DNA of 64,000 nucleotides from an uncultured Bacillales bacterium (GTDB lineage: Bacteria; Bacillota_I; Bacilli_A; RF39; UBA660). The notes below the pieces were generated by a model. That model saw nothing but the letters and a program-made list of their open reading frames with translations, searched no databases and was not told the DNA's origin. Positions 27,428 through 46,241 of this stretch are shown in pieces. Each line of letters starts with the position of its first letter. Position 1 is the first letter of the stretch. Location: the NCBI GenBank assembly GCA_905206805.1, contig CAJLIR010000006.1, positions 2,999-66,998 of the forward strand, written 5' to 3'. Both the position numbers and the translations under genes were made by a program.

Positions 27428-30400
27428 ATGTATAAGAATAAAAATTTGATTATATTAATATTTAGTTTAGTTTTGTTTTTTGTATTTTATCCTGATGTTT
27501 TTGCTCAGGAGATATCAGAATTTTCTTGTACAGATGATTATCAAGAATTTATTGCGCCAACTTATGGAAATTATAAAATAGAATTATGGGGAGCTGCTGG
27601 TGGTAGAAACTTAGTTGATAACGCATATACTAATACAACATATGCAAAACTAGGTGGTAAAGGTGCTTATACTAGTGGTGTTATTACTCTTAAGAAAAAC
27701 GAAAAAATTTATGTTTATGTTGGATGCAAAGGGCGAGATGCTAAGAAAGCTACTATTGTCGCTGGCGGATATAATGGTGGAGGTAGAGGAGATCACGATC
27801 ACTCTGATGATGAAGCTTCTGGTGCTGGTGGAGGTGCTACAGATGTTCGTTTAGTAAAAGGTGATAATTGGGATGATTTTACTTCTTTAAAAAGCCGTAT
27901 TATGATTGCTGGTGGAGGCGGAGGAGCTTCTTACGAACTTCGTGGTGGAAATGCTGGTACGCTTTCTGGTGAGGACACTCTTTATAGTAAAGGTGGAACT
28001 CAAACCACTGGATATAAATTTGGAATTGGACAAGATGGAGTTTATGTAAATTCTAATGTCGATGTTGCCGGAGGTGGAGGCGGATATTTTGGGGGATTTG
28101 CCAAATCTTCAGGAGCTTCTAATTCTTATAAAACAGCTGGTGCTGGTGGTAGTTCGTTTGTGTCAGGGTGTACAGGTTGTACTGCTATTTCTGGAAATTC
28201 TACTGAAGATAATATATATTTCTTAAATAGTAATATTCATTATAGTAATTATAAATTTAGTGATATTGTTATGAAATCTGGTAGTGAAGAGATGCCAAAC
28301 TATTTAGACAATAGTGTTATTACTGGTAATAGCTCTGATGGACATGCGAGAATAACTCTTATAAATGGGATTTCTCATTTTACTAAATTAGATATTGAAA
28401 ATGCTACTATTGTTCAAAAATTAGAAGATTCTGTTTTTGAATATGATGTAATTATTCCAAATGATAATTTTTCGACAACTATTAATTATGAAACATCAGT
28501 AAAAAATGTAACTGTATTTGGAGCTGGAAAGGTTACATTAAAAGATGGAAAAGTACATATGGTAAGTATTATAGACAATGATACTGGTGATATTACAATA
28601 TATAATATTACGCCATCTTTAAAGAAATCTACTTTAAAATCGATTTCATTTAGTGAAAAACAATTTGATTTTAATCCTGATCAATATGAATATACAATAG
28701 AAGTACCTTATAATATTTTTGACTTAACGCCTATTATAGAGACTTATGATAATACTACTTATACTATAGAAAAATCTACTTTAAAAATTGGAAATAATTT
28801 AGTAAAAATAAATGTAAGTACTCAAGGTATGGAAAATTCTACTTATAAATTTTATGTAAAAAGACAAGAAAGCAATAATCTTAAAACTATATATGAATCA
28901 ACAGGCTCTTCCGAAGAATACGTTGTACCTTATTCTGGTTATTATGAAATAGAGTTATGGGGAGCTGCTGGTGGCCGAGGTAGAACTAATTATGTATTAG
29001 ATAAATATGGTGGTAAAGGTGGGTATACAAAAGGTACTATCTATCTTGAAAAGGGTACTATTCTTTATTTTTATGTAGGTGGTAAAGGCCTTAATGCTGC
29101 AAGTGTATCTAGATGTGTAGGTGGACTTGGAGGATATAATGGTGGAGCTCAAGGTGGAATTGATGGAAACTGTGATTCTAATCCTGAACCTGGTGCCGGA
29201 GGTGGTGGAGCCACTGATGTTCGTTTGGTAGGAGGAGATTGGAATAATATTGATTCACTAAAAAGCCGTATAATGGTTGCCGGAGGCGGAGGAGGAGGAA
29301 CATATTCTTATGTTGGTTCTTCAGCCGGTGGACTTAATGGGTATGCTGGAGGAGCGGCTAAAACTTTCGCAACTCAAATATCTGGTAATGCATTTGGATA
29401 TGCAACTATGGTTTCTAATTCAGATTATACTGGAGGACCAGGAGGTTCTGGAAGTGGATATTATGGTGGTATAACTAATAAAAGTGATTCTGCATCTGGT
29501 GGAGGAGGTTCCAGTTTTATTTCTGGACATGCTGGAAGTATAGCTATAAATGAAGATGGAATTCCAAAGACAAATGTATATACTGTACTTGATAATTCTA
29601 TTCATTATTCAAATTATAAATTTGAAGATACAGTTATGATAGATGGAAATGGATATGAATGGACAACTAAGAAGGAAACTCAAATTGGAATGCCTACATT
29701 TGATGGAAAATCAAAAATGAATGGTAATGAAAATTCTGGTTATGCCAAAATAACTTTTTTAGGACGAGGAAAAGAAGATACGTTAGATTTCATTGCTTTG
29801 AGTAGTGGTACATTAGATCCAGTATTTGATCCTGATACAAAAGAATATAATGTTACTCTTGATTCATCTGTTTCACAGTTGACTGTTGACGCTACATCTT
29901 CTAATCCGGATATAGCGATATATGGTTTAGGAGAATATGATATTCCGTCAGGAAAAACTGATATAAATATTCAGCTTACTTCTGTAAATGGAAATGTTAA
30001 TTTATATACAATTCATGTAACAAGAGACGCAAATAGTAACAAGTATTTATCTAATGTACTTATCAATGGTATAAAATATGATTTATTTTCACCTAGTAAA
30101 TTCGAATATAATATTGAACTTCCTACAAGTATTAATTATATTGATTTAGAAGTAATTAAAGGTTCTACAAGTCAAGAGGTAACTGGAACAGGTAAGTTTG
30201 AATTTAGTAATAATTCTATTTCTAAAACAATTTTAGTTGTATCTGAAGATAAAAATGAAAGTCAACATTACATATTTAATTTTACAAGAAAAAAGAGTAC
30301 TAAATTAAAAAGTATTGATCTTGGTAATGAACTAATAAAAAATTTTGATTTTGGTTCTGATATATATGAATACAATATAGAAATTCCTAATAATATATTA

Positions 30401-33400
30401 GAGTTGAATATTAATACCATTGCTTATTATAATGGTGCATCTATTGAGATAATAGGCGGCCACTATTTGGAAAAAAGTGGTGTTATAACTGTAACTTCTA
30501 AATTAGAAGGTCTAGAAGATTCTGTTTATAAAATTAATTATACAAAAACTTCTGATATTGATGTTCCCGAAAATTTATATGAGTATACTGGTGATGTTCA
30601 AACATTTACGGCATTATATGGTGGAAAATATAAAATAGAATTATGGGGAGCTGCTGGTGGACGTGGAAGAACTAATTATGTATTAGATAAATATGGTGGT
30701 TCTGGAGGTTACACAAGTGGTGAAATAGTACTTAATCAAAACCAAGTTTTGTATGTTTATGTTGGAGGTAAAGGAAAAGATTCAGCAAGTGTATCTAGAT
30801 GTGTAGGTGGACTTGGAGGATATAATGGTGGAGCCAAAGGTGGTATTGATGGAAACTGTGATTCTAATCCTGAACCTGGAGCTGGTGGCGGAGGAGCTAC
30901 AGACATTCGTTTAGTTGGTGGTATTTGGAATGATACTGATTCATTAAAAAGCCGTATTATGGTTGCTGGAGGTGGTGGAGGAGCCACTTATAATGTTACC
31001 GGTTCATCCGCTGGTGGATTAGAAGGATATATTGGAAATAAAGGAAAATCGGCTGCAACTCAAATATCTGGTAATGCATTTGGATATGGCACTATTGTTT
31101 CTGATTCGGATTATACTGTTGGCCCAGGAGGAGCTGGAAGTGGATATTATGCTGGTACAACTAGTAGAAGTGATGGTTCATCTGGTGGAGGTGGATCAAG
31201 CTTTATTTCTGGACATGCCGGAAGTATAGCCATAAATGAAGATGGTAATCCTAAAACCACACTTTTTACAACTTTAAGTGATTCATATCATTATTCTAAT
31301 TTTGTTTTTACTAATACTGTTATGATAGATGGAAAAGGGTATAATTGGACTACTAAAAAAGAAGGTGTAACTTCTATGCCAGATCCTTATGGGGGATATT
31401 ATAAAGATGGTACTGGAAATTCTAAAGATGGCTATGCTAGAATAACTTTATTATCTACTTTAAGTAGTAATAATTTCTTAGATTCTCTTACAATTAACGA
31501 TGGTGATATTTCGATTGCATTTGAGCCTTGGATTACAGAATATGATTTAAATCTTGAAGAAGATGATAAATATATAAAAATTTCTGCTAAAGCGAAAGAT
31601 GAAGATGCTGTTATTAGCGGTTTAGGTACTGTCACTGTGCCACCTGGCAATAGTAAACAAACAATCTCTGTTACAGCAAGTGATGGAAGTGTTAGAAATT
31701 ATGTATTAAATATAAATCGTAAGGGTTCGAGTGACCCATATCCTTTAGACATACAAATAAATAAAATGAATCCTTATTTATGTCAAAAAGATTCTCATTA
31801 TTGTAATTATACTTTTAATAAAGATACAACTAATTATGAAATTACTTTACCTTTTATGCTTAATGAAGTTGAGGTAAAACCTATTTTAAAATCAGAATAT
31901 CAAAGTGTTATTTATAGAAAAGTAGAAGCTGATAATACAACTGAACTAGAAAATGGTACTTTTAGTTTAACAAATGATATAAATACTTATCAAGTAGAAG
32001 TTACTAGTGAGGATGGAACTCAAAATATTGTTTATACATATGTATTTAAAAGAGATATGACGGGTAATAATAATTTAACTAGTTTAAAAATTGTTAATCC
32101 AGATATTGAAATTGATTTTGATCCATATAAATATGAGTATTATGGAACAATTACTTCAGCTTATACAAATTATGATATTGAAGCAATTCCTGAAAGTAGT
32201 GATGCAAAAGTTTCTATTACAGGAAATACTAATTTGGTTTTAGGAATTAATGATGCTATGGTAATTGTTACTGCTTCTAATGGTGATACTAAAACTTATT
32301 TACTTCATATTTATAAAGAGCAAGATAGTAATGTGTTTTTGAAAGAATTAGAAGTTGTTGGAAATGGAAGTTCTTTAGAGTTATCACCACAATTTAATAA
32401 ATTGTTAAATGATTATGTTATAAGTGCTCCTTCAAATGTGAAATCTGTTACTATAAATGCAACTCCCGAAAGTGGCAGTGCATCTGTTACTGGATTAGGT
32501 AATAAAGTTTTAAAATCTGGTATAAATAATTTTAGTGTTCAAGTAACTAGTGAAAGTGGAGATGTTAATGTTTATAATTTGACAATTAATAAAGATAAGA
32601 ATTTTAATCCACTACTTTCTAATATTGAAATAGATGGATATACTTTTGAAGAAGAATTTAGTCCTACAAATTATGAATATTATTTAAAAATACCAAAGGA
32701 TGTTACTTCGCTTGATTTAAATGTTACTCCACAGGAATCTACTACAAATTATAGAATTAGTGGGAATCGTAATTTAGTAAAAGTAAATAATACTATTACA
32801 ATTCATAGTGTTGCTGAGAATCAAACCTCAAAAGATTACTATATATATGTATCAAAACCTCTTTCATCAAATAATTATTTGAAAGATATTAAGTTAAGTA
32901 CAGGCACCTTAAATGAAGAATTTAATAAAGAAACACTTGAATATACTATGGATATTTCAAGTGATGTTGAGAGTATAGATGTTACCGGAATTTTGGATGA
33001 TTCAAGTTCAATTATAAAGGGTAATGGTACATATTATTTATCCACAGGTGTAAATGTAATTAAACTTGTTGTTCAAAGTGAAACAGAAGAGGAACGTATA
33101 TATACTATAACAATAAATAGGGATAAAAATGATGATGCTGGTTTAAAAAAGGTAAATAATAGCGCAGGTAGTAGTGTTATACTAAATGATACAGAAGAAT
33201 ACCAATATTTGATTAATGTTCAATATGAGGTAAATCAAATAGAGATAAATGGTATTCCAAATGTATCAACATCAACAGTAAATGGTAATGGTACGTATTC
33301 ATTAAAGGTTGGAAATAATGATATTGTTTTAAGCGTTCAAAGTGAGAAAGGAACAGTAAAGACATATATTGTTAGGGTCGTAAGAGATTTATCCTTAAAT

Positions 33401-36400
33401 GATGATTTGAAATATTTATTTGTTAAAGAAGGCGCTCTTTCTCCTAGATTTCAAGATACAACTATTTTATATGATGTTAAAATTCCTTCTAATGTTGATA
33501 AATTAACTATTGATGCTATTACGGAAGATGAAAATGCTACGTATGAAATTATTGGTAATCAAGATTTTGTTGAGGAAACTGAAAAGGAAGTAATAGTTAG
33601 AGTTACTGCTCAACGTGGAAATACTAAAGATTATAAATTGCGAGTTGTTAAACAAAAAGTAATAACTGAAGAATTTTATTTAGATTCTTTATCTATAGAT
33701 TCTGGTATCTTAAATCCTACTTTTGATCCTAAAACTCAACTATATTATGCGTCTGTTGATTATAATGTTAATGAGATTACTTTAACTGGTGGCACTAATG
33801 ATCCAAACGTTAGAGTATATGGAAATGGTACATATTCTTTAAATGTTGGGAAAAATCCACTTGCTATTTCTATAATAAATAGTGAGGGTCTTCAAAAAGA
33901 TTATCAAGTTATCGTGACAAGAAAGGAATCTGATGATGCTACATTATCTTCACTTGTAGTAAAGGGTAATAAATTAAACCCTAAGTTTAATAAGAATATT
34001 GATAATTATACTTTAACTACAAGCAAATCTTTTCTAGAGTTTACTACAATTAAAACAACAGAAAATGATGCCACATATGAAGTAATTGGTAATAAAAATT
34101 TTACAACTGGTATAAATACTGTAACTATAAGAGTTACTGCTCCTGATAAAACAAAAACTCATGATTATGTACTTTCTGTAAATAAAAGTGCAGATACAAA
34201 CAATAATTTAGCATCTTTGAGTGTTCTTGGTAATACTTTAATACCTAATTTTCATAAAGGTGTAACAACATATACCATCAATGTTTCAAATGAAATAAAC
34301 AATGTTGTTATTGAAGCTACACCAGAAGAGAAAACATCTACGGTAACAGGAACAGGGTCACAACAAATTAATGTTGGTACTAATAAAATTGATGTTGTTG
34401 TAACAAGTGAAGCAGGAACTCAAAAAAAATATACAATTATTGTTACAAAAGATGAATCAGATAACAACTTTTTGGCAAATCTTTATACAAGTGAAGGAAT
34501 TTTAACTCCAAATTTTGATAAAGAAATATTAGAATATAATATAAATGTTCCTAATGAAGTTGATGAGATAGAAATAGATGGTAAATTAGAAGATTTATCT
34601 GCATCTACAAATGACTTTAAATTATATTCTTTAAATGAAGGCGATAATTCAATTTATATTACTGTAACAAGTCAGGCTGGAAGTGTACGTATATATAAAA
34701 TAAATGTCAATAGAGAAGAAAAAGTAAGTTCTTATTTAAAGAATTTAGAAATAGAAAATTATGATTTAGATCCCGAGTTTGATAAAGAAAATTTTGAATA
34801 TTTTATTAATGTTAATAATGAAACAACAAAATTAGATATTTCTTTAGAAACAGAAGATGAAAATGCTAATGTTGAAGTATCTGGAAATGAAAATTTTTCT
34901 GTAGGAATGAATATAGTTACAATTACAGTAACAACAACGGATTCGACAACTTCAACTTATGAAATTTATGTTAATAGGAATTTATCTACTAACAATTATT
35001 TAAGTAGTATTGAATTATCTAGTGGTACATTGAACCCAGAATTTAATCCAAATACAATGAATTATGTGGTAGATGTTGAAAATAATATTTCAAGCATAGA
35101 TATTAATGCAGTAGTGCAAGATTCACAATCAGTTGTAACAGTTGGTAATGGAACTCATACTTTAATTACAGGAGAAAATGAAATTGTTATTAAAGTTAAA
35201 TCGGCAATAGGAGTATATAGAGTATATACACTAAAAGTAAATAGAAAAAAATCTGATAATAATTATTTATCAAGTTTAATTGTTACTTCTAATAATAAAA
35301 ATATACCAATAAATTTTGAAAAAACTAATAATAATTATTCAATAAATGTTGATAGTTCAGTTGATTATATCAATATAAAGGCGTTTTCTGAGGAAAAAAG
35401 TTCTACTGTAAGTAATATAGGTACTAAAAAAATAAATTTAGGAATCAATAACTTTGAAATATTAGTTACTAGTGAGTCTGGTCTTGTAAATGTATATAAG
35501 TTAACTGTAGAAAGAAAAGCTAGTAGTAATAATAATGTTATTTTAATAAAACCAAGTGTTGGATTATTAAATGTTTCATTTGATCCAAAAATAAAAGAAT
35601 ATACATTAAATGTAGATAAAGATGATAATTTACTTTCCTTTGATGTTAACTTAGAAGATAGTAAAGCAATTGTTACTGGTTACGAAGAAAAAATTATTAC
35701 TGATGGAACAAGTGTAAGAACAATAACAGTAACAGCAGAAGATGGCAGTACAAATATATATACTTTTAATGTAATAAAAGAAAATCAAAGTGAAGCTAGA
35801 TTATCTAGTTTAAAAATAAAAGGTTATGAAATAAATTTTGATAAAGATAAATTTATTTATAATATAGAAGTAGCTGGTAAAAAAAGTAAATTACTAGAAA
35901 GTGAAATAGAAGCAATACCATTAGATAATGAAGCAAATGTAAATTTGATGGGTGATATAGAATTATTACGAGATATAAATAATAAATATATTATTGAAGT
36001 TATTGCTAAAGATGGTTATACGACACAAGAATATATATTAAATATAACTAGAGGTCCTATATTAGAAAATATTACTGTAAATAAAAATTTGTTTAAAATA
36101 GTAGAAGGTGAAACAGATACTATTTTAGTAACTACTGATCCTTTAGATTTTAAAACTGATATAAAATATGAAGTAGAAGATGATAGTATTGTAAGTGTTG
36201 ATGATGCTGGATTAATAACAGGTTTAAGTGTAGGGAAAACTACAATTAAAGTAATAGCAGTAGAAGATGAAAATATTACAAAAACATTAAATATAGAAGT
36301 AATACCAAAAGAGATAAAGAGTTCATATAGTATTAATAGAGATGAATATAAATATATAATTGGTATGGATGCTGGAATAACTGTTGATGATTTTTTAACA

Positions 36401-36733
36401 AGTATTGAAAATGATAAAGAGTATACAAAAATTTATAATGGAGAAGAATTTGCTGATAATTCTGAAATAATTAAAACAGGACAAATTATAAAACTAGAAA
36501 TAAATGATAAAGTATATGATGAATTGATAATAATTGTTAGAGGAGATATTAACGGTGATGGAAAAATAAACATATCTGATAGTGTTATATTGCAGGATTA
36601 TGTTTTGCTAAAAGAAAAAATAACTGATTATAGAGAATACTCAATGGAATTAACAAAGGATGGGAAAATAAATATATCTGATACTGTTAGACTTAATGAA
36701 TATATTTTAAAGAAAATTAAAACTTTAAACTGA
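27428..36733 (+). CDS. giant secreted surface protein (3101 aa): signal peptide, 3x glycine-rich (ALK/LTK-type Gly_rich-like) domains, about 25 cadherin-like beta-sandwich domains, a Big_2-like Ig domain, C-terminal dockerin
   Basis: Signal peptide. Three roughly 290-aa modules begin Y(G/S)xYKIELWGAAGG and carry multiple poly-Gly stretches (GAGGGATDVRLV, SRIMVAGGGGG, GGSSFISG). Dozens of roughly 90-aa repeats follow the L.SL.v..G.L.P.F......Y...V......V...A.......v.g.G......G.N.I.I.V.....t..Y.i.V.R pattern. C-terminal GDINGDGKINISDSVILQDYVL...KDGKINISDTVRLNEYIL is a dockerin duplicated Ca-binding segment. Confidence 0.9.
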   Translation: MYKNKNLIILIFSLVLFFVFYPDVFAQEISEFSCTDDYQEFIAPTYGNYKIELWGAAGGRNLVDNAYTNTTYAKLGGKGAYTSGVITLKKNEKIYVYVGCKGRDAKKATIVAGGYNGGGRGDHDHSDDEASGAGGGATDVRLVKGDNWDDFTSLKSRIMIAGGGGGASYELRGGNAGTLSGEDTLYSKGGTQTTGYKFGIGQDGVYVNSNVDVAGGGGGYFGGFAKSSGASNSYKTAGAGGSSFVSGCTGCTAISGNSTEDNIYFLNSNIHYSNYKFSDIVMKSGSEEMPNYLDNSVITGNSSDGHARITLINGISHFTKLDIENATIVQKLEDSVFEYDVIIPNDNFSTTINYETSVKNVTVFGAGKVTLKDGKVHMVSIIDNDTGDITIYNITPSLKKSTLKSISFSEKQFDFNPDQYEYTIEVPYNIFDLTPIIETYDNTTYTIEKSTLKIGNNLVKINVSTQGMENSTYKFYVKRQESNNLKTIYESTGSSEEYVVPYSGYYEIELWGAAGGRGRTNYVLDKYGGKGGYTKGTIYLEKGTILYFYVGGKGLNAASVSRCVGGLGGYNGGAQGGIDGNCDSNPEPGAGGGGATDVRLVGGDWNNIDSLKSRIMVAGGGGGGTYSYVGSSAGGLNGYAGGAAKTFATQISGNAFGYATMVSNSDYTGGPGGSGSGYYGGITNKSDSASGGGGSSFISGHAGSIAINEDGIPKTNVYTVLDNSIHYSNYKFEDTVMIDGNGYEWTTKKETQIGMPTFDGKSKMNGNENSGYAKITFLGRGKEDTLDFIALSSGTLDPVFDPDTKEYNVTLDSSVSQLTVDATSSNPDIAIYGLGEYDIPSGKTDINIQLTSVNGNVNLYTIHVTRDANSNKYLSNVLINGIKYDLFSPSKFEYNIELPTSINYIDLEVIKGSTSQEVTGTGKFEFSNNSISKTILVVSEDKNESQHYIFNFTRKKSTKLKSIDLGNELIKNFDFGSDIYEYNIEIPNNILELNINTIAYYNGASIEIIGGHYLEKSGVITVTSKLEGLEDSVYKINYTKTSDIDVPENLYEYTGDVQTFTALYGGKYKIELWGAAGGRGRTNYVLDKYGGSGGYTSGEIVLNQNQVLYVYVGGKGKDSASVSRCVGGLGGYNGGAKGGIDGNCDSNPEPGAGGGGATDIRLVGGIWNDTDSLKSRIMVAGGGGGATYNVTGSSAGGLEGYIGNKGKSAATQISGNAFGYGTIVSDSDYTVGPGGAGSGYYAGTTSRSDGSSGGGGSSFISGHAGSIAINEDGNPKTTLFTTLSDSYHYSNFVFTNTVMIDGKGYNWTTKKEGVTSMPDPYGGYYKDGTGNSKDGYARITLLSTLSSNNFLDSLTINDGDISIAFEPWITEYDLNLEEDDKYIKISAKAKDEDAVISGLGTVTVPPGNSKQTISVTASDGSVRNYVLNINRKGSSDPYPLDIQINKMNPYLCQKDSHYCNYTFNKDTTNYEITLPFMLNEVEVKPILKSEYQSVIYRKVEADNTTELENGTFSLTNDINTYQVEVTSEDGTQNIVYTYVFKRDMTGNNNLTSLKIVNPDIEIDFDPYKYEYYGTITSAYTNYDIEAIPESSDAKVSITGNTNLVLGINDAMVIVTASNGDTKTYLLHIYKEQDSNVFLKELEVVGNGSSLELSPQFNKLLNDYVISAPSNVKSVTINATPESGSASVTGLGNKVLKSGINNFSVQVTSESGDVNVYNLTINKDKNFNPLLSNIEIDGYTFEEEFSPTNYEYYLKIPKDVTSLDLNVTPQESTTNYRISGNRNLVKVNNTITIHSVAENQTSKDYYIYVSKPLSSNNYLKDIKLSTGTLNEEFNKETLEYTMDISSDVESIDVTGILDDSSSIIKGNGTYYLSTGVNVIKLVVQSETEEERIYTITINRDKNDDAGLKKVNNSAGSSVILNDTEEYQYLINVQYEVNQIEINGIPNVSTSTVNGNGTYSLKVGNNDIVLSVQSEKGTVKTYIVRVVRDLSLNDDLKYLFVKEGALSPRFQDTTILYDVKIPSNVDKLTIDAITEDENATYEIIGNQDFVEETEKEVIVRVTAQRGNTKDYKLRVVKQKVITEEFYLDSLSIDSGILNPTFDPKTQLYYASVDYNVNEITLTGGTNDPNVRVYGNGTYSLNVGKNPLAISIINSEGLQKDYQVIVTRKESDDATLSSLVVKGNKLNPKFNKNIDNYTLTTSKSFLEFTTIKTTENDATYEVIGNKNFTTGINTVTIRVTAPDKTKTHDYVLSVNKSADTNNNLASLSVLGNTLIPNFHKGVTTYTINVSNEINNVVIEATPEEKTSTVTGTGSQQINVGTNKIDVVVTSEAGTQKKYTIIVTKDESDNNFLANLYTSEGILTPNFDKEILEYNINVPNEVDEIEIDGKLEDLSASTNDFKLYSLNEGDNSIYITVTSQAGSVRIYKINVNREEKVSSYLKNLEIENYDLDPEFDKENFEYFINVNNETTKLDISLETEDENANVEVSGNENFSVGMNIVTITVTTTDSTTSTYEIYVNRNLSTNNYLSSIELSSGTLNPEFNPNTMNYVVDVENNISSIDINAVVQDSQSVVTVGNGTHTLITGENEIVIKVKSAIGVYRVYTLKVNRKKSDNNYLSSLIVTSNNKNIPINFEKTNNNYSINVDSSVDYINIKAFSEEKSSTVSNIGTKKINLGINNFEILVTSESGLVNVYKLTVERKASSNNNVILIKPSVGLLNVSFDPKIKEYTLNVDKDDNLLSFDVNLEDSKAIVTGYEEKIITDGTSVRTITVTAEDGSTNIYTFNVIKENQSEARLSSLKIKGYEINFDKDKFIYNIEVAGKKSKLLESEIEAIPLDNEANVNLMGDIELLRDINNKYIIEVIAKDGYTTQEYILNITRGPILENITVNKNLFKIVEGETDTILVTTDPLDFKTDIKYEVEDDSIVSVDDAGLITGLSVGKTTIKVIAVEDENITKTLNIEVIPKEIKSSYSINRDEYKYIIGMDAGITVDDFLTSIENDKEYTKIYNGEEFADNSEIIKTGQIIKLEINDKVYDELIIIVRGDINGDGKINISDSVILQDYVLLKEKITDYREYSMELTKDGKINISDTVRLNEYILKKIKTLN

Positions 36734-36800: not shown

Positions 36801-36829
36801 TTTACAAATAATATACATTTTGTTATAAT
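36801..36829 (+). promoter_or_regulatory. putative promoter of the 1851-aa gene operon (TTTACA, 17 nt, TATAAT with TGT extension)
   Basis: TTTACA at 36801-36806, 17-nt spacer, TATAAT at 36824-36829 preceded by TGT; GGGAGAG RBS before 36871. Confidence 0.4.
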
Positions 36830-36870: not shown

Positions 36871-39800
36871 TTGAAAATGAAATTAGTAAAAAAAAATAAT
36901 TTTTTTCTGTTATTTATTATAATGTTATTTTCTTTTGGATTTAATGTTATATCTGTAAATGCAGAAGGTGAACATCAATTTTCATTAAAGGTTTATGATT
37001 GGAATGCTTTTGATAATGATTGGGAAGGTTCTGGTACGGGAGAAGAAATTTCTAATAATGGTACTATAGAACCTGGTAAAGTATATAAATTATCTATTTA
37101 TTATATTCCAGGAACAATTACAGAAGTAGGTATGCAAATGGGGATTAAGTATAATAATCTTTTAATTGAACCGATGTATGCAGATGGTGAATTGTATACA
37201 GAAACTGATATGTCAACAACATACCAAGGTGGTATATGGCCTGCATCAGGTACAACACCATCCGCAAAAAAGAAAACAAATTGGCAAGTATTGTCAAATG
37301 ATGCAAGTGATGAAAGTATGTTTACATTTATGGCTACGGATACAACAACTTCAAATGCTCTTGAAACAGAAGGAGAAATTGCAAGTGTGTATTTTAAAGT
37401 AAAAGATACAGTGACATCAGGAACAAATATAATTTTTGAATATGATGATGAATATACAGCACTTAATAACGATAGACCTAAAGTAACATCAGGAATAAAT
37501 TTAACAGTTCAAACAGCTTTAAGTTCTAATTCGGCACTTCATACATTAAGTGTCACAAATAGCGAAACAACTTATAATTTAACCCCAACTTTTACAGCAG
37601 ATGATAATACAATTAAAGAATATAGTACAGTTGTACCTTCATCAGTAACAAGTGTTGATTTAAGTGCAACAGCAACAGATTCTAATGCCAGCGTGTTAAG
37701 TGGCGGATTGGGTATAAAAGAATTAAATATTGGAAATAATGATTTTAATATAGTTGTAACCGCTGGGGATGGTTCAATTACTACTTATAAGGTGTCAGTT
37801 TATAGATTAAATGATGATGCTACATTAAAATCATTAGATTTAACAAATAATGTTAATATTGGAGAATTTAATAGTGCAACTACTGAATATGAGGCAAGCG
37901 TACCATACGCAACTAAAAATACAGTTGTAAGTGCAACAACAACAGATCAAAATGCAAGTATTAAATCTGGAACTGGAAGTTTTGAATTTACTAATTGTGG
38001 TACTACTCCTAATACTAAGGAAATAATAGTAAATGCTGAAAACTGTAAGGAAGAATATGCAAGTGTTCCAAATAATGCTTGTACTACAAAAACATATACA
38101 GTAACAGTAAATAGAGAAAATCCTTCTAATAATAATTATTTAAGTAATTTAAAAGTAAATGGACAAACAGTAACTGATTTTAATAAAGAAAAATTAGAAT
38201 ATACATTGGATGATGTAAAAGGTGATGTTTCAAGTATAGAAGTTTCAGCTACAGCCGAAGATACAAAAGCAAGTGTAGTAGGAACTGAAAATAAATCACT
38301 AAGTATTGGTGATAATAGTATAGAAGTAGTTGTAACAGCAGAAGATGGATCAACTAAAATTTATACAATAAAAGTTAAGAAGTTATCAAATGATATAGCA
38401 CTTAAATCATTAACTGTAACAAGTAACCCTATGGGAACATTAACTCCAAGTTTTGCAAGTACAACTTATGCTTATACATATAATTATGATGCAACAGTAA
38501 CAAGTTTAAATGTTACAGCAACAACAAATAATACAAATGCAAAAGTAGGAATTATTGATAGTGATTCAAGTGATATTATGACAAGTACAATCGGAAGTGC
38601 AGCAAAAACATTTAATTCATCTACAAAAAATGTAAAAGTAACGGTAACAGCTGAAGATGGTACAACAAAAGATTATACAATTGTTTTATCAAGAGATAAA
38701 TCAACAGATGCAACATTAGATAGTTTAACAGTAAGTGAAGGAACATTAACTCCAACATTTAATAAAAATACATTAAATTATACAGTAAATGTTGATAATG
38801 ATGTTACCAGCATTGATGTAAATGCAACATCAACAGATTCAAATGCTACAGTAACTGGTACAGGAACTAAACAATTAAATACAGGAAATAATTTAATTAA
38901 TATTGTAGTTAAAAGTGAATCTGGAACCGAAAACACTTATACAATAAATGTAATAAGAGCAAAGAGTTCTAATAATTACTTAAGTGATTTAAAAGTAAAT
39001 GGGCAAACAGTAACTGATTTTAATAAAGAAAAATTAGAATATACATTGGATGATGTAAAAGGTGATGTTTCAAGTATAGAAGTTTCAGCTACAGCCGAAG
39101 ATACAAAAGCAAGTGTAGTAGGAACTGAAAATAAATCACTAAGTATTGGTGATAATAGTATAGAAGTAGTTGTAACAGCAGAAGATGGATCAACTAAAAT
39201 TTATACAATAAAAGTTAAGAAGTTATCAAATGATATAGCACTTAAATCATTAACTGTAACAAGTAACCCTATGGGAACATTAACTCCAAGTTTTGCAAGT
39301 ACAACTTATGCTTATACATATAATTATGATGCAACAGTAACAAGTTTAAATGTTACAGCAACAACAAATAATACAAATGCAAAAGTAGGAATTATTGATA
39401 GTGATTCAAGTGATATTATGACAAGTACAATCGGAAGTGCAGCAAAAACATTTAATTCATCTACAAAAAATGTAAAAGTAACGGTAACAGCTGAAGATGG
39501 TACAACAAAAGACTATACAATCGTTTTATCAAGAGCTTTATCAAATAATAGTTATTTAAAAGATATAAGTATTGATGGAACTAATATTGATGGATTTAAT
39601 AAAGAAAATTTTGAATATAATATAAAAGTTTCAAGAGAAACAGATAGTATTAATATATCTGCAATTTTAGATGATGAAAAGGCAACTTTAACTACAGATT
39701 TATCTAATAAATTTAGTTTAAATCTAGGAACTAATAAAATAAATATTGTAGTAACGGCAGAAAATGGTGATACAAGCACTTATGTATTAAATATTGAAAG

Positions 39801-42426
39801 AGAAAAGAATAATGATGCAACATTAGATAGTCTAACAGTTAGTAAAGGAACATTAACTCCAGCATTTAACAAAAACACATTAAATTATACAGTAAATGTA
39901 GAAAATGATGTTACAAGTATAGAGGTTTCAGCTACAGCAACAGATTCAAATGCTACAGTAACTGGTACAGGAACTAAACAATTAAATACAGGAGATAATA
40001 CAGTTACAATAAAAGTAACAAGTGAATCTGGATCAGAAAATACTTACACAATAAATGTAATAAGAGCAAAGAGTTCTAATAATTACTTAAGCGATTTAAA
40101 AGTAAATGGGCAAACAGTAATTGATTTTAATAAAGAAAAATTAGAATATACATTGGATGATGTAAAAGGTGATGTTTCAAGTATAGAAGTTTCAGCTACA
40201 GCCGAAGATACAAAAGCAAGTGTAGTAGGAACTGAAAATAAATCACTAAGTATTGGTGATAATAGTATAGAAGTAGTTGTAACAGCAGAAGATGGATCAA
40301 CTAAAATTTATACAATAAAAGTTAAGAAGTTATCAAATGATATAGCACTTAAATCATTAACTGTAACAAGTAACCCTATGGGAACATTAACTCCAAGTTT
40401 TGCAAGTACAACTTATGCTTATACATATAATTATGATGCAACAGTAACAAGTTTAAATGTTACAGCAACAACAAATAATACAAATGCAAAAGTAGGAATT
40501 ATTGATAGTGATTCAAGTGATATTATGACAAGTACAATCGGAAGTGCAGCAAAAACATTTAATTCATCTACAAAAAATGTAAAAGTAACGGTAACAGCTG
40601 AAGATGGTACAACAAAAGACTATACAATCGTTTTATCAAGAGCTTTATCAAATAATAGTTATTTAAAAGATATAAGTATTGATGGAACTAATATTGATGG
40701 ATTTAATAAAGAAAATTTTGAATATAATATAAAAGTTTCAAGAGAAACAGATAGTATTAATATATCTGCAATTTTAGATGATGAAAAGGCAACTTTAACT
40801 ACAGATTTATCTAATAAATTTAGTTTAAATCTAGGAACTAATAAAATAAATATTGTAGTAACGGCAGAAAATGGTGATACAAGCACTTATGTATTAAATA
40901 TTGAAAGAGAAAAGAATAATGATGCAACATTAGATAGTCTAACAGTTAGTAAAGGAACATTAACTCCAGCATTTAACAAAAACACATTAAATTATACAGT
41001 AAATGTAGAAAATGATGTTACAAGTATAGAGGTTTCAGCTACAGCAACAGATTCAAATGCTACAGTAACTGGTACAGGAACTAAACAATTAAATACAGGA
41101 GATAATACAGTTACAATAAAAGTAACAAGTGAATCTGGATCAGAAAATACTTACACAATAAATGTAATAAGAGCAAAGAGTTCTAATAATAATTTAACAG
41201 ATATTAAAGTAGATGGTAATAGTATTGAAAACTTTAGTTCAAATACTTTAAAATATAATTTACCAAAGGTAAGCTATAATAGAACAAGTATAAATGTAGA
41301 AGCTATATTATCAGATTCAAAAGCTAGCGTAACCGGGGTTGGTAATGTTTCATTAAATACTGGTGATAACAAAATAGAAATAATTGTAACTGCCGAAGAT
41401 GGAACCGCTAAAACTTATGAATTAAATATTGAAAGAAAAAAAAATAATAATGCTAAATTACAAAGTTTAAGTATTGGCAATTATACATTAACTCCAGCAT
41501 TTAATAAAGATACTTTAGAATATACTGTAACAGTAGGTGAAGATGTAAATATTTTAAATCAAGATGATGTAATTGCAATCCCAGAAGATAATAATGCAAC
41601 AGTTGTAAAACAAGGTAATTTAGAGTTATCTACAACATCTGATAATTATTATAGAGTAACAGTAACAGCTGAAAATGGTGTTGATAAAAATGTTTATGCT
41701 ATTAAAGTAATTCGTCCAAAATCAAGTGATGCTACTTTAAAATCATTAGAAATAATTGGTGGAAAATTGACTCCAACATTTAATAAAGATACTTTAGAAT
41801 ATAATGTTACAATGGGTAAAGATGTTACTAAATTTAATAAAGATAATATAAAAGTATCAATAAATAATGGTAATGCTAAAATTAGTTATAACAATGAAAT
41901 AATAATTAATAGTGATACATTTACTAAGTATATAATTACAGTAACAGCTGAAAATGGTTCTAAAAAGGAATATATCTTAAATGTAAAAGTTGATACAGAA
42001 TTGGATAAAATCACATCTAGCAGTCATACAATTAATGATGAATATATTAAAACAGTAAGATTATATGAAACAGGTAGAGAATTAAAGGATGAGTTGGATA
42101 ATGATAATGCTTATCTTGAAATTTGGACATCTGATGAATCAAGAAAAGTTGAAGATGATGAAAAATTATCAACTGGAATGATTGTAAAATTAGTTATTAA
42201 TGGTGTTTTAAAAGATAGAAAAATCATTGTTATTAGGGGAGATACATCTGGTGATGGTGAAATAGATTTGTTAGATGCTGTTAAAATATTAAATAATGCA
42301 TTGCAAAAAGCAATGTTAGATGGAGCTTATAAAGAAGCAGCATTTGTAAATAATGATGATGAAATTGACTTATTGGATGCAGTTATGATTTTAAATCATT
42401 GTTTACAAAAACAACCTTTATATTAG
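36871..42426 (+). CDS. giant secreted surface protein (1851 aa): signal peptide, N-terminal cohesin-like domain, about 16 cadherin-like beta-sandwich domains, C-terminal dockerin-like module
   Basis: N-terminal region (aa about 35-215) shows the cohesin-like pattern (KVYKLSIYYIPG..EVGMQMGIKYNNLLIEP ... GEIASVYFKVKDTVTSGTNIIFEYDD). Repeated cadherin-like domains. C-terminal GDTSGDGEIDLLDAVKILN...NNDDEIDLLDAVMILNHCL is a dockerin-like duplicated segment. Confidence 0.85.
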   Translation: MKMKLVKKNNFFLLFIIMLFSFGFNVISVNAEGEHQFSLKVYDWNAFDNDWEGSGTGEEISNNGTIEPGKVYKLSIYYIPGTITEVGMQMGIKYNNLLIEPMYADGELYTETDMSTTYQGGIWPASGTTPSAKKKTNWQVLSNDASDESMFTFMATDTTTSNALETEGEIASVYFKVKDTVTSGTNIIFEYDDEYTALNNDRPKVTSGINLTVQTALSSNSALHTLSVTNSETTYNLTPTFTADDNTIKEYSTVVPSSVTSVDLSATATDSNASVLSGGLGIKELNIGNNDFNIVVTAGDGSITTYKVSVYRLNDDATLKSLDLTNNVNIGEFNSATTEYEASVPYATKNTVVSATTTDQNASIKSGTGSFEFTNCGTTPNTKEIIVNAENCKEEYASVPNNACTTKTYTVTVNRENPSNNNYLSNLKVNGQTVTDFNKEKLEYTLDDVKGDVSSIEVSATAEDTKASVVGTENKSLSIGDNSIEVVVTAEDGSTKIYTIKVKKLSNDIALKSLTVTSNPMGTLTPSFASTTYAYTYNYDATVTSLNVTATTNNTNAKVGIIDSDSSDIMTSTIGSAAKTFNSSTKNVKVTVTAEDGTTKDYTIVLSRDKSTDATLDSLTVSEGTLTPTFNKNTLNYTVNVDNDVTSIDVNATSTDSNATVTGTGTKQLNTGNNLINIVVKSESGTENTYTINVIRAKSSNNYLSDLKVNGQTVTDFNKEKLEYTLDDVKGDVSSIEVSATAEDTKASVVGTENKSLSIGDNSIEVVVTAEDGSTKIYTIKVKKLSNDIALKSLTVTSNPMGTLTPSFASTTYAYTYNYDATVTSLNVTATTNNTNAKVGIIDSDSSDIMTSTIGSAAKTFNSSTKNVKVTVTAEDGTTKDYTIVLSRALSNNSYLKDISIDGTNIDGFNKENFEYNIKVSRETDSINISAILDDEKATLTTDLSNKFSLNLGTNKINIVVTAENGDTSTYVLNIEREKNNDATLDSLTVSKGTLTPAFNKNTLNYTVNVENDVTSIEVSATATDSNATVTGTGTKQLNTGDNTVTIKVTSESGSENTYTINVIRAKSSNNYLSDLKVNGQTVIDFNKEKLEYTLDDVKGDVSSIEVSATAEDTKASVVGTENKSLSIGDNSIEVVVTAEDGSTKIYTIKVKKLSNDIALKSLTVTSNPMGTLTPSFASTTYAYTYNYDATVTSLNVTATTNNTNAKVGIIDSDSSDIMTSTIGSAAKTFNSSTKNVKVTVTAEDGTTKDYTIVLSRALSNNSYLKDISIDGTNIDGFNKENFEYNIKVSRETDSINISAILDDEKATLTTDLSNKFSLNLGTNKINIVVTAENGDTSTYVLNIEREKNNDATLDSLTVSKGTLTPAFNKNTLNYTVNVENDVTSIEVSATATDSNATVTGTGTKQLNTGDNTVTIKVTSESGSENTYTINVIRAKSSNNNLTDIKVDGNSIENFSSNTLKYNLPKVSYNRTSINVEAILSDSKASVTGVGNVSLNTGDNKIEIIVTAEDGTAKTYELNIERKKNNNAKLQSLSIGNYTLTPAFNKDTLEYTVTVGEDVNILNQDDVIAIPEDNNATVVKQGNLELSTTSDNYYRVTVTAENGVDKNVYAIKVIRPKSSDATLKSLEIIGGKLTPTFNKDTLEYNVTMGKDVTKFNKDNIKVSINNGNAKISYNNEIIINSDTFTKYIITVTAENGSKKEYILNVKVDTELDKITSSSHTINDEYIKTVRLYETGRELKDELDNDNAYLEIWTSDESRKVEDDEKLSTGMIVKLVINGVLKDRKIIVIRGDTSGDGEIDLLDAVKILNNALQKAMLDGAYKEAAFVNNDDEIDLLDAVMILNHCLQKQPLY
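38135..38975. repeat. first, partial copy of the intragenic tandem repeat (A+B units, about 840 bp)
   Basis: The 560-bp A unit (aataattatttaagtaatttaaaagtaaatggacaaacag...ttatcaagag) recurs almost identically at 38975 and 40082. Confidence 0.8.
38975..41188. repeat. two near-identical 1107-bp tandem repeat units inside the 1851-aa gene (each encodes about 4 cadherin-like domains)
   Basis: Identical 228-bp stretches, shown by identical reverse-strand ORFs at 39552-39779 and 40659-40886 (offset 1107 bp); only a few SNPs between units. Confidence 0.85.
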
Positions 42427-42435
42427 GAGGCAATT

Positions 42436-44550
42436 ATGAAAAAATTTAAAAATTTAAACTTGTTTATAGTATCTGGCTTTATATTTCTATTTTCTATCTT
42501 TTTTATAACTCCAGTATATGCTTTAGGAAGTGCTACAGTAGGTTTTAGTGGCAATTCTACTGTTAGTGTAGGTAGTAATATAACAGTACAATTATATGTA
42601 TCAAATGTTAATGATGCAAATGGTGGTGTTGCAAGTTTTGAAGGAAATCTTTCTTTTGATTCTGATTATTTGGAATATGTATCAGGATCTGGTGCAACAA
42701 CTCCTTATTTGTTTCAAATAAATACAGCTGCAAATTATAAAATTGCAGCTCTTGATACATCTTTAAGTAATGGCATTAAAAGTAGTAGTTCGACTAACGT
42801 TTTTACCTTTGTATTTAAAGCAAAAAAAGAAGGCTCAACAACTGTTAGTATTACAAATTTAAAATTGACTAATAGCAGTGAGAGAATGACTGGTAATGTT
42901 AGCCCAAAAACAATTACGATAAATACTCCTGCACCAGTTACAAAATCAAGTGATGCAACACTTAAAAGTTTATCAGCAACAGGCTATACATTAAGTCCTG
43001 AATTTAATAAAGATATTACATCTTATAAGATTAAAGTTCCAGCAACTGCTACAACAGTTAGTTTACAAGGAAGTGCTAATCATAGTAAGGCAACAGTATC
43101 AGGACTTGGTAATATAAATTTAACTGGTGATACAACTGTTGCAACAATAAAAGTAACAGCCGAAGATGGAACGGTAAAAAATTATACAGTAACAATTGAA
43201 AAAGAAAAAACTACTCCTGTTACAAAGAGTAATGATGCAACACTTAAAAGTTTGGATGTTAGTGGATTTACTTTAAATCCAACTTTTAAAAGTAATGTAA
43301 ATACTTATTCTATTAGGGTTAATAATAATATAACTGGTTTAAAAGTTACTGCTATTGCTAATAGTGATAAAGCTAGTGTTTCTATATCTGGAAATAGTGA
43401 TTGGGAAGAAGGAAACAATATAATTACAATAAAAGTAACAGCAGAAGATGGAACAGTTAATAATTATATTGTTAATGTTAATAGAGCTTCACTAAATACA
43501 ACAAAAGCTATAAATAAATCGAGTGACAATTATTTAAAGAGTTTAATCATTCAATCATCACACGAAATGAAACCTATTTTTGATAAGAATTTAACTAATT
43601 ATAATATTACAGTACCTTATGAGGTTAGCAAACTTGATTTAACTGCTACTAGTAATGACTCTAAAGCAAAAGTTGAAATAATAGGTAATAGTAGTTTTAG
43701 TGTTGAAAAAGTAAATCTTGTTGAAGTTAAAGTAACTGCTGAGGATGGAAGTATTCGTATTTATTCTTTAAACGTTACTCGTAGTACAACTTCTAGTAAA
43801 ACTGATTTAAAAGATTTAGTAATAGATAATGTTAATTTAAGTCCAAAATTTGATTCAAATATTTTAGATTATACTGCTAATGTTGATGCTAAAACTGATA
43901 AATTAAATATTAGATATACAACTAGTAATAGTGATAGTAAAGTCGAAATAATTGGTAATGATAATTTAAAAGAAGGAAATAATACTGTTTTAATAAAAGT
44001 AACTGATAAGGAAGGCTTTACTAAGTATTATTCGATAAATGTTGTAAAAGAAAAATCAGGTAGTACTATTTTAGGTCTTAAACCACTTCATTTTGTACTT
44101 CTATTCTTTATAATACTTCTTTTAATTGCGATAATTATTATTTTATTAATAAAAAGAAAAAAAGATGAGAACAAAAAATTGGAAGAAAAGAAGTTAATGC
44201 AAACGCAACCAATAATTGAAGTAAAACCAGAATTTAATTTTAATTCAAAGAATTCTTCTGATGATGATGTTGTACACGGAAATATGAGTCAAAATAGTGG
44301 TACTATAGGGACAAATCCAGAAAAGAAACAAATTTTTGATGCTAGTTATGAAAATAAAATTCCTTATGACCCTTATGATGAAACAGTTACTAAACAAGAA
44401 TTAATTGATGCAATTCACGAAGCATCAGAAAAAAAGGATGTGTCTAAACTTCAAATGTTGTTGAGGCAAGAAGAGTTAAATAAGATGAAAAAAGAATTAA
44501 AGGAAAAAGAGGATTTAGAACAAAAAGAGGAAGATGAAAAATGGTGGTAA
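42436..44550 (+). CDS. membrane-anchored cohesin protein (704 aa): signal peptide, cohesin domain, 4 cadherin-like domains, TM helix, charged cytoplasmic tail of about 130 aa
   Basis: N-terminal SATVGFSGNSTVSVGSNITVQLYVSNVNDANGGVASFEGNLSFDSDYLEYVSGSG...VFTFVFKAKKEGSTTVSITNLKLTN matches the cohesin fold pattern. TM LHFVLLFFIILLLIAIIIILLI followed by a KRKK stop-transfer. RBS TAGGAGG 10 nt after the upstream gene's stop. Confidence 0.8.
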   Translation: MKKFKNLNLFIVSGFIFLFSIFFITPVYALGSATVGFSGNSTVSVGSNITVQLYVSNVNDANGGVASFEGNLSFDSDYLEYVSGSGATTPYLFQINTAANYKIAALDTSLSNGIKSSSSTNVFTFVFKAKKEGSTTVSITNLKLTNSSERMTGNVSPKTITINTPAPVTKSSDATLKSLSATGYTLSPEFNKDITSYKIKVPATATTVSLQGSANHSKATVSGLGNINLTGDTTVATIKVTAEDGTVKNYTVTIEKEKTTPVTKSNDATLKSLDVSGFTLNPTFKSNVNTYSIRVNNNITGLKVTAIANSDKASVSISGNSDWEEGNNIITIKVTAEDGTVNNYIVNVNRASLNTTKAINKSSDNYLKSLIIQSSHEMKPIFDKNLTNYNITVPYEVSKLDLTATSNDSKAKVEIIGNSSFSVEKVNLVEVKVTAEDGSIRIYSLNVTRSTTSSKTDLKDLVIDNVNLSPKFDSNILDYTANVDAKTDKLNIRYTTSNSDSKVEIIGNDNLKEGNNTVLIKVTDKEGFTKYYSINVVKEKSGSTILGLKPLHFVLLFFIILLLIAIIIILLIKRKKDENKKLEEKKLMQTQPIIEVKPEFNFNSKNSSDDDVVHGNMSQNSGTIGTNPEKKQIFDASYENKIPYDPYDETVTKQELIDAIHEASEKKDVSKLQMLLRQEELNKMKKELKEKEDLEQKEEDEKWW

Positions 44551-46241
44551 AAAATATATTAAATAAGAATATTAAATTATTTCTATTTTCTATTCTTTCT
44601 TTTTGTTTTCTTTTATTTCCATTTATAGCTAAAGCTGATGGAAGTGTGTCATCTGGCTTTAGTGGAAATGATAGTGTTTATGTCGGAAATACTATTGATG
44701 TAACTCTTTATGTAAATGAAAGTGGTAGTGCTTCAGGTATTATGGCAATACAAGGAAGTTTGTCGTATGATAGTAGTAAATTAACGCTTTTAAATTCAGT
44801 TTCATTAGCGCCATATCAAATTCAAATAAATGGTAATAGTATTGCCGGGATGGATACTAGTGGTTCCAGAACAATCAGAGGTTATTCAAATATAATGAAA
44901 TTTACATTTAAAGCAAATTCACTAGGAAGTGCTACAGTAAGTTTTAATGGAGCTAAATATATTGATGGCAACAATTCTTATATTAACGGTGGTGGATGTA
45001 GTAGAACAATAAATATTGTAAATCCTCCTAGTTCAAATAATAATTTAAGTAGTTTGACAGTTAGTAGTGGAAATATCAATTTTGATAAAAATAATACTAA
45101 CTATAATATAAGTGTTGATTCAAATGTAACAAGTATAAATATTGGTGCAACTGCAGAAGATGGGGGAGCTAGTGTATCAGGAACTGGAACTAAAAATTTA
45201 GGATACGGTAATAATTCTTTTGGTATTACTGTAACAGCTCCAAGTGGTGCTACAAAAACATATACAGTAAATGTTAATCGTAAAGATGATAGAAGTAGTA
45301 ATAATAAACTTTCTAGTTTAAGTGTAAATGATGGTGAAATTAATCCTAGTTTTAATGCAGATAATGAGTCTTATGATGTATCAGTTCCATTTAGTGTAGA
45401 TAATTTAAGAATAAATGCTAAAGCACAAGATGGTAAATCAAGAATTGATATTTCTGATACTTCTTTAATTGCTGAGGAAACAAAGGATATATATATAACG
45501 GTAACAGCAGAAAATGGAGCTAAAAAAATCTATACAATTCATGCTACCCGTGGTAAAGATCCGAATAAAGTTCTTTCAACGAATAATTTTTTAGAAAGTT
45601 TAACTGTAAGTTCAGGTGTACTTAGTCCAATTTTTAATAAAGAACAGGATAAATATATCATTTATCTTCCTTATGAAGTTGATTCAATTGATATAACAGG
45701 TATTGTAGAGGATAAAAGGTATGCAACTATAAAAAAAGATGGACCAGAAAAATTAAGTGTTGGAAATAATACTTATACTTTATCTGTAACATCAGAAGAT
45801 AACTCAGTTAGAACATATACAATAATTGTATCAAGAGGAATAAGTATGACTGAGGAAACATTGAGTTCTAATATTTATTTAAAAAGTATTAAATTAAAAA
45901 AAGGTTCATTAAAAGAATCATTTGACAAAGAAATATTTGATTATACTTATACTGGTAGTGAAGTAGAAGCAATTCCTGAAGATGAAAATAGTACGGTGAC
46001 GGTTATAAATCGTAATAATAAAATAATTATTATGGTAAAATCTCCTTCAGGAAGTATTGGTATTTATACATTAACTCCATATAAGTCAAATTTAATTAAT
46101 ATTATTATTTATATAATTTTATCTTTAACAAATATAGTAGGTGGAGTAGGATTTTATATAATATATAAAAAAAATAAAAAGAACAATTCTAAAGTAAAAA
46201 AACAAGATAAAGAGAGAATAACAGTAGATAATAAAAACTAG
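44541..46241 (+). CDS. membrane-anchored cohesin protein (566 aa): signal peptide, cohesin domain, about 4 cadherin-like domains, C-terminal TM anchor
   Basis: SVSSGFSGNDSVYVGNTIDVTLYVNESGSASGIMAIQGSLSYDSSKLTLLNSVS...IMKFTFKANSLGSATVSFNG matches the cohesin pattern. C-terminal TM IIIYIILSLTNIVGGVGFYIIY followed by KKNKKNN. Overlaps the upstream gene by 10 nt (operon). Confidence 0.8.
   Translation: MVVKNILNKNIKLFLFSILSFCFLLFPFIAKADGSVSSGFSGNDSVYVGNTIDVTLYVNESGSASGIMAIQGSLSYDSSKLTLLNSVSLAPYQIQINGNSIAGMDTSGSRTIRGYSNIMKFTFKANSLGSATVSFNGAKYIDGNNSYINGGGCSRTINIVNPPSSNNNLSSLTVSSGNINFDKNNTNYNISVDSNVTSINIGATAEDGGASVSGTGTKNLGYGNNSFGITVTAPSGATKTYTVNVNRKDDRSSNNKLSSLSVNDGEINPSFNADNESYDVSVPFSVDNLRINAKAQDGKSRIDISDTSLIAEETKDIYITVTAENGAKKIYTIHATRGKDPNKVLSTNNFLESLTVSSGVLSPIFNKEQDKYIIYLPYEVDSIDITGIVEDKRYATIKKDGPEKLSVGNNTYTLSVTSEDNSVRTYTIIVSRGISMTEETLSSNIYLKSIKLKKGSLKESFDKEIFDYTYTGSEVEAIPEDENSTVTVINRNNKIIIMVKSPSGSIGIYTLTPYKSNLINIIIYIILSLTNIVGGVGFYIIYKKNKKNNSKVKKQDKERITVDNKN

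Follow-up and report, generated by a model that had tools for sequence, protein, structure and literature searches.

The window analysed here, a stretch of 64,000 nucleotides (nt) from an uncultured Bacillales bacterium (assembly GCA_905206805.1, contig CAJLIR010000006.1), contains a gene for a secreted protein of 1849 amino acids (aa), in which an N-terminal cohesin-fold domain is followed by 16 Cadherin-like domains and a predicted dockerin (Table 1). This gene is a member of a four-gene cohesin/dockerin cluster, and most of its Cadherin-like domains are arranged in multi-domain blocks that recur in tandem and whose number differs by whole units among the orthologues found in other assemblies. 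The G+C content of the window is 24.9%, and its long open reading frames (ORFs) can be read with the standard bacterial code.

Table 1. Features of the cohesin/dockerin cluster and parts of the 1849-aa gene, in window coordinates
Feature	Position	Strand	Basis
Upstream gene, 3101-aa protein: three ALK/LTK glycine-rich domains, Cadherin-like, Big_2, dockerin; candidate distal subunit	27428..36733	+	Pfam
Promoter-like site, TTTACA-17-TATAAT with TG extension	36801..36829	+	Best sigma-70-like score in 36500-46500, 11/12
Gene, 1849-aa secreted protein: cohesin, 16 Cadherin-like domains, dockerin	36877..42426	+	ORF; ATG; GGGAGA ribosome-binding site
Putative signal peptide, aa 1-28, MKLVKKNNFFLLFIIMLFSFGFNVISVNA	36877..36960	+	Hydrophobic core and VNA cleavage-like motif in translation
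N-terminal cohesin-fold domain, aa 29-222	36961..37542	+	Pfam (sub-threshold), PDB profile search, AlphaFold/Foldseek
Cadherin-like domains D1 and D2, outside the repeats	37543..38133	+	Domain segmentation, PF12733
Unit 1, domains a1-b1-d0 (840 nt, 280 aa)	38134..38973	+	Domain segmentation, sequence comparison
Unit 2, domains a2-b2-c2-d2 (1107 nt, 369 aa)	38974..40080	+	Sequence comparison, segmentation, AlphaFold model
Unit 3, domains a3-b3-c3-d3 (1107 nt), 2 nt different from unit 2	40081..41187	+	Direct comparison
Cadherin-like domains E, F and G, outside the repeats	41188..42012	+	Domain segmentation
Predicted C-terminal dockerin, two Ca-binding repeats, DTSGDGEIDLLD and NNDDEIDLLD	42238..42396	+	Pfam Dockerin_1, sequence
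Downstream gene, 704-aa protein: signal peptide, cohesin, Cadherin-like, C-terminal transmembrane helix, cytoplasmic tail; candidate membrane anchor	42436..44550	+	Pfam, translation
Downstream gene, 566-aa protein: signal peptide, cohesin-like N-terminus, Cadherin-like, C-terminal transmembrane helix; second candidate anchor	44541..46241	+	Pfam, translation

Translation from the ATG at 36877 is identical to the database protein P0001. The ribosome-binding site of this ATG lies 8 nt upstream and the start agrees with that of all database orthologues, which makes it the likely one and the TTG at 36871, from which the original prediction had counted 1851 aa, the less likely. Thus, the gene itself stands as first described, while its length is probably 1849 aa.

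Direct comparison of 38975-40081 with 40082-41188, the two 1107-nt stretches that had been described as a tandem pair with a few single-nucleotide differences, revealed just 2 mismatches in 1107 nt, one synonymous (38985, T/C) and one replacing Thr by Ile (39014, C/T). The longest exact run common to the two units is 1066 nt, so chance is not an issue, and the 369-aa units are 99.7% identical in amino acids and 99.8% in nucleotides. In codon frame, the long units lie at 38974-40080 and 40081-41187 (1107 = 3 x 369), and the length of every repeat unit is divisible by three, that is, in frame. Directly 5' of the two long units lies the related unit of 840 nt that had also been noticed, at 38134-38973 (280 aa). 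In addition, the sub-unit of about 560 bp said to appear three times was found as about 558 nt at 38130-38687 that come back 840 and 1947 nt further on, each time with 4 mismatches. Tandem Repeats Finder reported no array within the gene, which it missed because its longest period was 500.

Domain segmentation resolved the long unit into exactly four Cadherin-like domains, in agreement with the earlier estimate of about four: a (273 nt), b (315 nt), c (267 nt) and d (252 nt). The 840-nt unit is a-b-d, namely the long unit without c, and the complete order of the Cadherin-like region is D1-D2-[a b d0]-[a b c d]-[a b c d]-E-F-G. The family profile PF12733 scored 490.9 bits over 15 stretches of the full protein, and an in-house profile separated the 16 domains. 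The 196-aa a-b segment is present in three copies of about 99% identity, with a1b1 about 99% identical to both a2b2 and a3b3, while d0, the rest of the 840-nt unit, shares about 85-87% nt identity with d2 and d3; outside the units, domain E shares 51% identity with c. Identity between adjacent domains is 22-46%, and near-identical ones recur three or four positions apart. Modelled with AlphaFold, a single a-b-c-d unit consisted of four all-beta (beta-sandwich) domains, with a predicted local distance difference test score (pLDDT) of 94.5 and a predicted template modelling score (pTM) of 0.69. The best PDB matches of this model were linear multi-domain arrays, including an RTX-adhesin extender and cadherin ectodomains, at low template modelling scores (TM-scores), which therefore lend support to the bead-on-a-string character alone.

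Protein searches returned close orthologues of 1849, 1569, 1480, 1200 and 1111 aa, encoded on related contigs from human-gut metagenomes, one Hadza sample included. The shortfalls from 1849 aa (280, 369, 649 and 738 aa) are the exact unit lengths and their sums, and in nucleotides the length classes differ by exactly 840 and/or 1107. The 16-domain form (1849 aa, abd-abcd-abcd) is the commonest, with at least 24 distinct full-length sequences, followed by the 12-domain form (1480 aa, abd-abcd) with seven, the 8-domain form (1111 aa, abd) with four, the 13-domain form (1569 aa, abcd-abcd) with three and the 9-domain form (1200 aa, abcd) with one. Identical four-gene synteny was observed throughout the ten loci compared, and the upstream neighbour has a steady length (3099-3101 aa) in all related loci, unlike the 1849-aa gene. 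Two lineages could be separated by the non-repeat parts of the gene; each of them holds several length classes, with flanks 99.6-100% identical within the lineage. The exact steps of 280 and/or 369 aa in an unchanged synteny bear out the proposal that the repeats form an in-frame stalk of variable length between strains, and we consider it likely that the length polymorphism is real. Similarly, four homologues from other species (P0060, P0062, P0094 and P0120) have their own three-domain super-repeats of 266/267 aa with at least 90% identity, and two of them, P0062 (2320 aa) and P0094 (2054 aa), are near-identical over the first approximately 1200 aa and differ by one 266-aa unit. The tendency to form super-repeats is thus a trait of the family.

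In other 16-domain alleles, units 2 and 3 share 94-96% nt identity, with longest exact runs of 270-656 nt and a synonymous divergence (dS) of 0.11-0.24, whereas the dS between units 2 and 3 of the window is 0.004 at their 99.8% nt identity. Related species have a single a-b-c-d block at the same position. The diverged units elsewhere, together with this single block, indicate that the block amplification is old within the species. The duplication had originally been taken to be recent, a view which could not be maintained, as the three-unit form is more common than any other and has units that differ by 4-6% elsewhere; what is recent in the window is the homogenisation of units 2 and 3, via either near-whole-unit conversion or loss and re-duplication, the extent of which may have been overstated by short-read assembly.

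Signs of exchange between units were observed in several alleles. Two alleles of domain c, 92% identical to each other, occupy positions 2 and 3 in all four combinations: alpha-alpha in the window, alpha-beta in locus L003, beta-alpha in L009 and beta-beta in L010. In addition, d1 is identical to d3 in L003, and cassettes are identical or nearly so at two positions in L010 (c2=c3) and in L012 (b1=b2, c1=c2). Among the near-clonal 16-domain alleles of lineage B, differences cluster in the repeats, and 54 of the 72 substitutions switch to the residue of a paralogous position; an eight-site patch in b is of unit-3 type in two samples and of unit-2 type in another, and has therefore been homogenised in both directions. 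One recombinant pattern of the 12-domain (1480-aa) form was present in four independent assemblies, and a fifth had a different crossover. We infer that the alleles arose by RecA-type unequal crossover and gene conversion. The near-identical stretches of 0.56-1.1 kb would provide the substrates for homologous recombination; unequal crossover would add or remove whole blocks, yielding 8, 9, 12, 13 or 16 domains, and gene conversion would transfer patches or whole cassettes from block to block, which may be why units 2 and 3 are near-identical in the window and 4-6% diverged elsewhere.

The two ends of the protein indicate how such a stalk could be held. For the N-terminal domain, the Pfam Cohesin score was 21.4 bits (E=3e-4), under the gathering score of 24.1; a sequence profile search of PDB gave 14 matches, 13 of them to cohesins or to scaffoldins with cohesins (best E=0.002). 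Its AlphaFold model had a pLDDT of 92.6, and the top 50 Foldseek matches in PDB were all cohesins, with E-values down to 1.5e-8. BLASTP detected no similarity between this domain and the cohesin of the neighbouring protein, and the assignment therefore rests on profile and fold evidence: the predicted fold is clearly that of a cohesin, to which the sequence points weakly. At the other end, beyond a linker that follows the Cadherin-like domains, Dockerin_1 scored 23.5 bits when the C-terminus was scanned alone (cut-off 22.9) and 19.4 bits in the full-protein scan. Two loops of the D-x-D/N-x-D type, each followed by IDLLDAV, are consistent with a dockerin module with duplicated Ca-binding segments, a marginal assignment.

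Taken together, we favour as fairly probable the reading that the gene encodes a super-repeat stalk shaped by recombination, inside an adaptor of the architecture cohesin-(Cadherin-like)16-dockerin, and recombination between the repeats probably serves to adjust the length of a surface fibre, a principle known from other bacteria. Several points weigh against this reading. No allele of more than 16 domains was seen, and the sequence scores of both the dockerin and the cohesin are marginal. The comparison alleles all come from short-read metagenome assemblies (with SPAdes, MEGAHIT-style and Logan contig names), and the 73.6-kb contig of the window is probably a short-read product too. Assemblers can skip loops, pop bubbles between copies of 95% identity and mis-phase variants beyond the insert size, and can thereby mimic deletion, conversion and homogenisation. 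Moreover, the sole two differences between units 2 and 3 of the window sit less than 40 nt from the 5' junction of the unit, where short reads can still be anchored, a distribution as compatible with homogenisation by the assembler as with a real event.

The question of assembly bears on the window itself, where copies of 94-96% identity may have been merged by bubble-popping, or where another number of abcd blocks may be hidden. The exact repeat of 1066 nt is longer than short-read insert sizes, the two remaining differences lie where assembly would be expected to preserve them, the contig is of modest length, and in other assemblies the gene is broken within the repeats into fragments of 303-915 aa. 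As contigs elsewhere end inside the repeats and leave truncated gene fragments, the locus is indeed a likely site of short-read assembly error, as had been suspected. However, the abd-abcd-abcd order and length recur in the at least 24 distinct sequences of this class from independent samples, some of them with well-diverged units; the d2-to-a3 junction and three distinguishable starts of domain a would imply at least three units in the strain of the window; and identical or nearly identical cassettes at two positions are also found elsewhere, in L010 and L012. An assembly origin of the near-identity of units 2 and 3, of their copy number, or of both is thus unlikely in our estimation, and an error in the exact copy number or identity given for the window is improbable to the same degree.

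A broader form of the same objection holds that the gene always has 16 domains and that the 13-, 12-, 9- and 8-domain alleles are collapsed assemblies, so that there is no real length polymorphism. In the repeat graph of the long allele, a valid shorter path exists for each short allele, the breakpoints fall in stretches common to the units, and one short allele, L008, is a Logan contig. However, breakpoint homology in the 8-domain alleles amounts to just 36-47 nt: the L004 breakpoint falls at the unit boundary, within 36 nt, and that of L008 inside d, within 47 nt. The 8-domain contigs are also without any c-domain sequence, yet L004 continues through the locus as part of a 377-kb scaffold. 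At least 10 samples of lineage B yielded the long allele intact, while one 12-domain recombinant occurs in 4 others; failure of an assembler at this locus visibly gives broken contigs; and a one-unit difference is also present in an unrelated family member (P0062/P0094). With these observations, we regard the collapse of a uniform 16-domain gene as quite improbable, and a stalk of truly variable length as the better account.

It may also be asked whether the number of blocks tunes valency instead of reach. PF12733 domains have been proposed to bind carbohydrate, and if the Cadherin-like domains of this protein bound a ligand such as a glycan, block number could set avidity, or the blocks could supply antigenically different cassettes; the cassette alleles are in fact 8-15% apart and are shuffled between strains. 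However, the ratio of nonsynonymous to synonymous divergence (dN/dS) of the repeat units is about 0.2, equal to or below that of the flanks, with no sign of diversifying selection, and ligand binding by the Cadherin-like domains is hypothetical. Same-position units compared between strains have a dS of 0.1-0.39, against 0-0.16 in the flanks, and this high divergence, together with the low dN/dS, points to old cassettes exchanged under purifying selection. Diversifying selection on the repeats was rejected on the same ratio. A role in valency, which is compatible with the stalk reading, therefore seems rather unlikely to us as the main effect of block number, and we retain an adjustable stalk as the working interpretation.

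The known class that comes closest to such a stalk is that of the Periscope Proteins, among them SasG/Aap, Rib, Sgo_0707, CdrA and Esp (Whelan et al., 2021, PMC8201768; review PMC9704523). Like these, the protein is secreted and probably a surface protein, its tandem repeats are long, highly identical and composed of domains that are predicted to fold, their copy number varies among close strains (with five length classes here, from short-read assemblies), intragenic homologous recombination is the proposed mechanism, and the functional domain is N-terminal. The gene also passes the operational screen of PMC8201768, with repeats of more than 50 residues, at least 80% identity, and variation within clusters of at least 90% identity. 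Several differences were also observed. The repeat is a block of three or four different domains whose neighbours are 22-46% identical and not highly similar, and the misfolding paradox of identical neighbours would therefore not arise. The C-terminus is a predicted dockerin without LPXTG or a wall anchor, so that attachment to the surface would be through a cohesin partner; at the N-terminus stands a predicted cohesin, which would dock other proteins, and not a host-ligand-binding domain; and there are 1-3 units, not tens. PF12733, cohesin and dockerin go without mention in the main text and supplements of PMC8201768, as far as these were available to us. A literature search on PF12733 and PF12810 and on cohesin-dockerin systems in RF39/RFN20-type bacteria gave nothing relevant, and nothing on this gene family.

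The combination of a cohesin and a dockerin on one polypeptide is shared with the cellulosomal adaptor scaffoldins, such as ScaA of Acetivibrio cellulolyticus and ScaB/ScaC of Ruminococcus flavefaciens, the cohesins of which are among the closest fold matches of the N-terminal domain. As with these scaffoldins, neighbouring genes encode cohesin proteins with a membrane or cell anchor and a further protein with a dockerin. Unlike in cellulosomal systems, the cluster contains no glycoside hydrolase or carbohydrate-binding module (CBM), only one cohesin is present, which is sub-threshold in Pfam, and 16 Cadherin-like domains stand between cohesin and dockerin. Anchoring in the cluster would be by transmembrane helices, whereas that of cellulosomal scaffoldins is by S-layer homology (SLH) domains or sortase. 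As a linear beta-sandwich array, the predicted four-domain unit is most like the extenders of RTX adhesins and the ectodomains of cadherins and protocadherins; sequence identity to these is 10-15%, the TM-scores are about 0.3, and the systems of secretion and anchoring differ.

The neighbouring genes suggest partners for both ends of the stalk. The three glycine-rich domains of the upstream 3101-aa protein belong to the ALK/LTK-type family PF12810, which is better known in animal receptor kinases. The 3101-aa gene also has internal diverged repeats of its own, 28943-29761 being 77% identical to 30629-31453. Direct sequence inspection located a hairpin and a T-run that close this gene and precede the promoter-like site; the number of sites from the promoter and terminator scan of 36500-46500 was not above the expectation from shuffled sequence, and the position of the top match alone is suggestive. 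Downstream, the 704-aa protein scored 37.5 bits with Pfam Cohesin, and the N-terminus of the 566-aa protein shares 38% identity with that cohesin (E=9e-23). At the helix positions that usually set dockerin specificity, the 3101-aa protein has SDSV/SDTV as against LDAV in the 1849-aa protein. The four cluster genes and 10 neighbours gave no match to any glycoside hydrolase or CBM family. A megablast search of the gene against plasmid and phage collections gave no match, and there is therefore no pointer to a mobile-element origin. In a collection of species-representative genomes, the nearest relatives by the N-terminal domain were a human-gut metagenome-assembled genome (MAG) of HRGM and Clostridium sp. 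CAG:433, at 58-59% identity.

From this arrangement, we infer that the 1849-aa protein is an adaptor in a surface fibre assembled by cohesin-dockerin contacts. Its dockerin would plug into one of the membrane-anchored cohesin proteins encoded directly downstream (704 or 566 aa), and its N-terminal cohesin would hold the dockerin of the upstream-encoded 3101-aa protein with its glycine-rich domains. How far the distal 3101-aa subunit stands from the cell would then depend on the number of blocks; with each domain taken as about 4 nm long, our own estimate from cadherin-type domains, the reach would be roughly 30 to 70 nm. In its full form, the proposal is a fibre that runs from a membrane anchor through the 1849-aa adaptor, as a length dial, to a 3101-aa tip, in which the four-domain super-repeat retains DNA identity on the kilobase scale as a basis for recombination, has no identical domains side by side, would spare the misfolding cost ascribed to classical Periscope Proteins and has arisen independently in related species. 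We put this complete picture forward tentatively, as a possibility somewhat short of an even chance.

Most surface stalks known to vary in length come from cultured pathogens for which long-read genomes exist. The present case would extend the principle to an uncultured lineage of human-gut commensals, sampled in the Hadza and in several industrialised cohorts, and would add to the known variable stalks both a non-covalent cohesin-dockerin assembly without a cellulolytic role and multi-domain super-repeats that avoid identical neighbouring domains. Overall, the locus is best explained as a Periscope-like stalk of super-repeats, tethered by its dockerin, in a gut bacterium not yet in culture, with copy number and near-identity pending long reads. 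The locus is also a concrete warning for MAGs: as this one gene was seen both broken and at five different lengths, neither catalogues of genes nor comparisons of strains can be relied on here without long reads.

The surroundings of the cluster contain further duplicated sequences. Two paralogous genes for small membrane-anchored proteins with no Pfam match, at 26933-27355 (140 aa) and 46333-46779 (148 aa), share about 70% nt identity and flank the cluster on both sides, a bracketing which hints that the cluster may have been inserted or duplicated as a block. Further upstream, a duplication of 789 nt (20323-21110 and 26090-26878) has copies of 99.6% identity that lie 5.8 kb apart. The second of these, with the ORF 26477-26851, reproduces in truncated form the 3' part of the ORF 20116-21084, and the two are separated by small ORFs and an ATP-binding cassette (ABC) transporter gene (22377-24128, minus strand). 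Similarly, downstream of the cluster, a 448-nt duplication (46771-47216 and 48953-49398) is 97.5% identical, and the 140-aa ORF at 46846-47268 repeats, in truncated form, the N-terminus encoded by the full-length D-Ala-D-Ala carboxypeptidase (Peptidase_S11/PBP5) gene at 49028-50182. Also downstream, at 50289-51416 and about 54416-55525, collagen-like/BclA_C (exosporium-type) genes share internal repeats.

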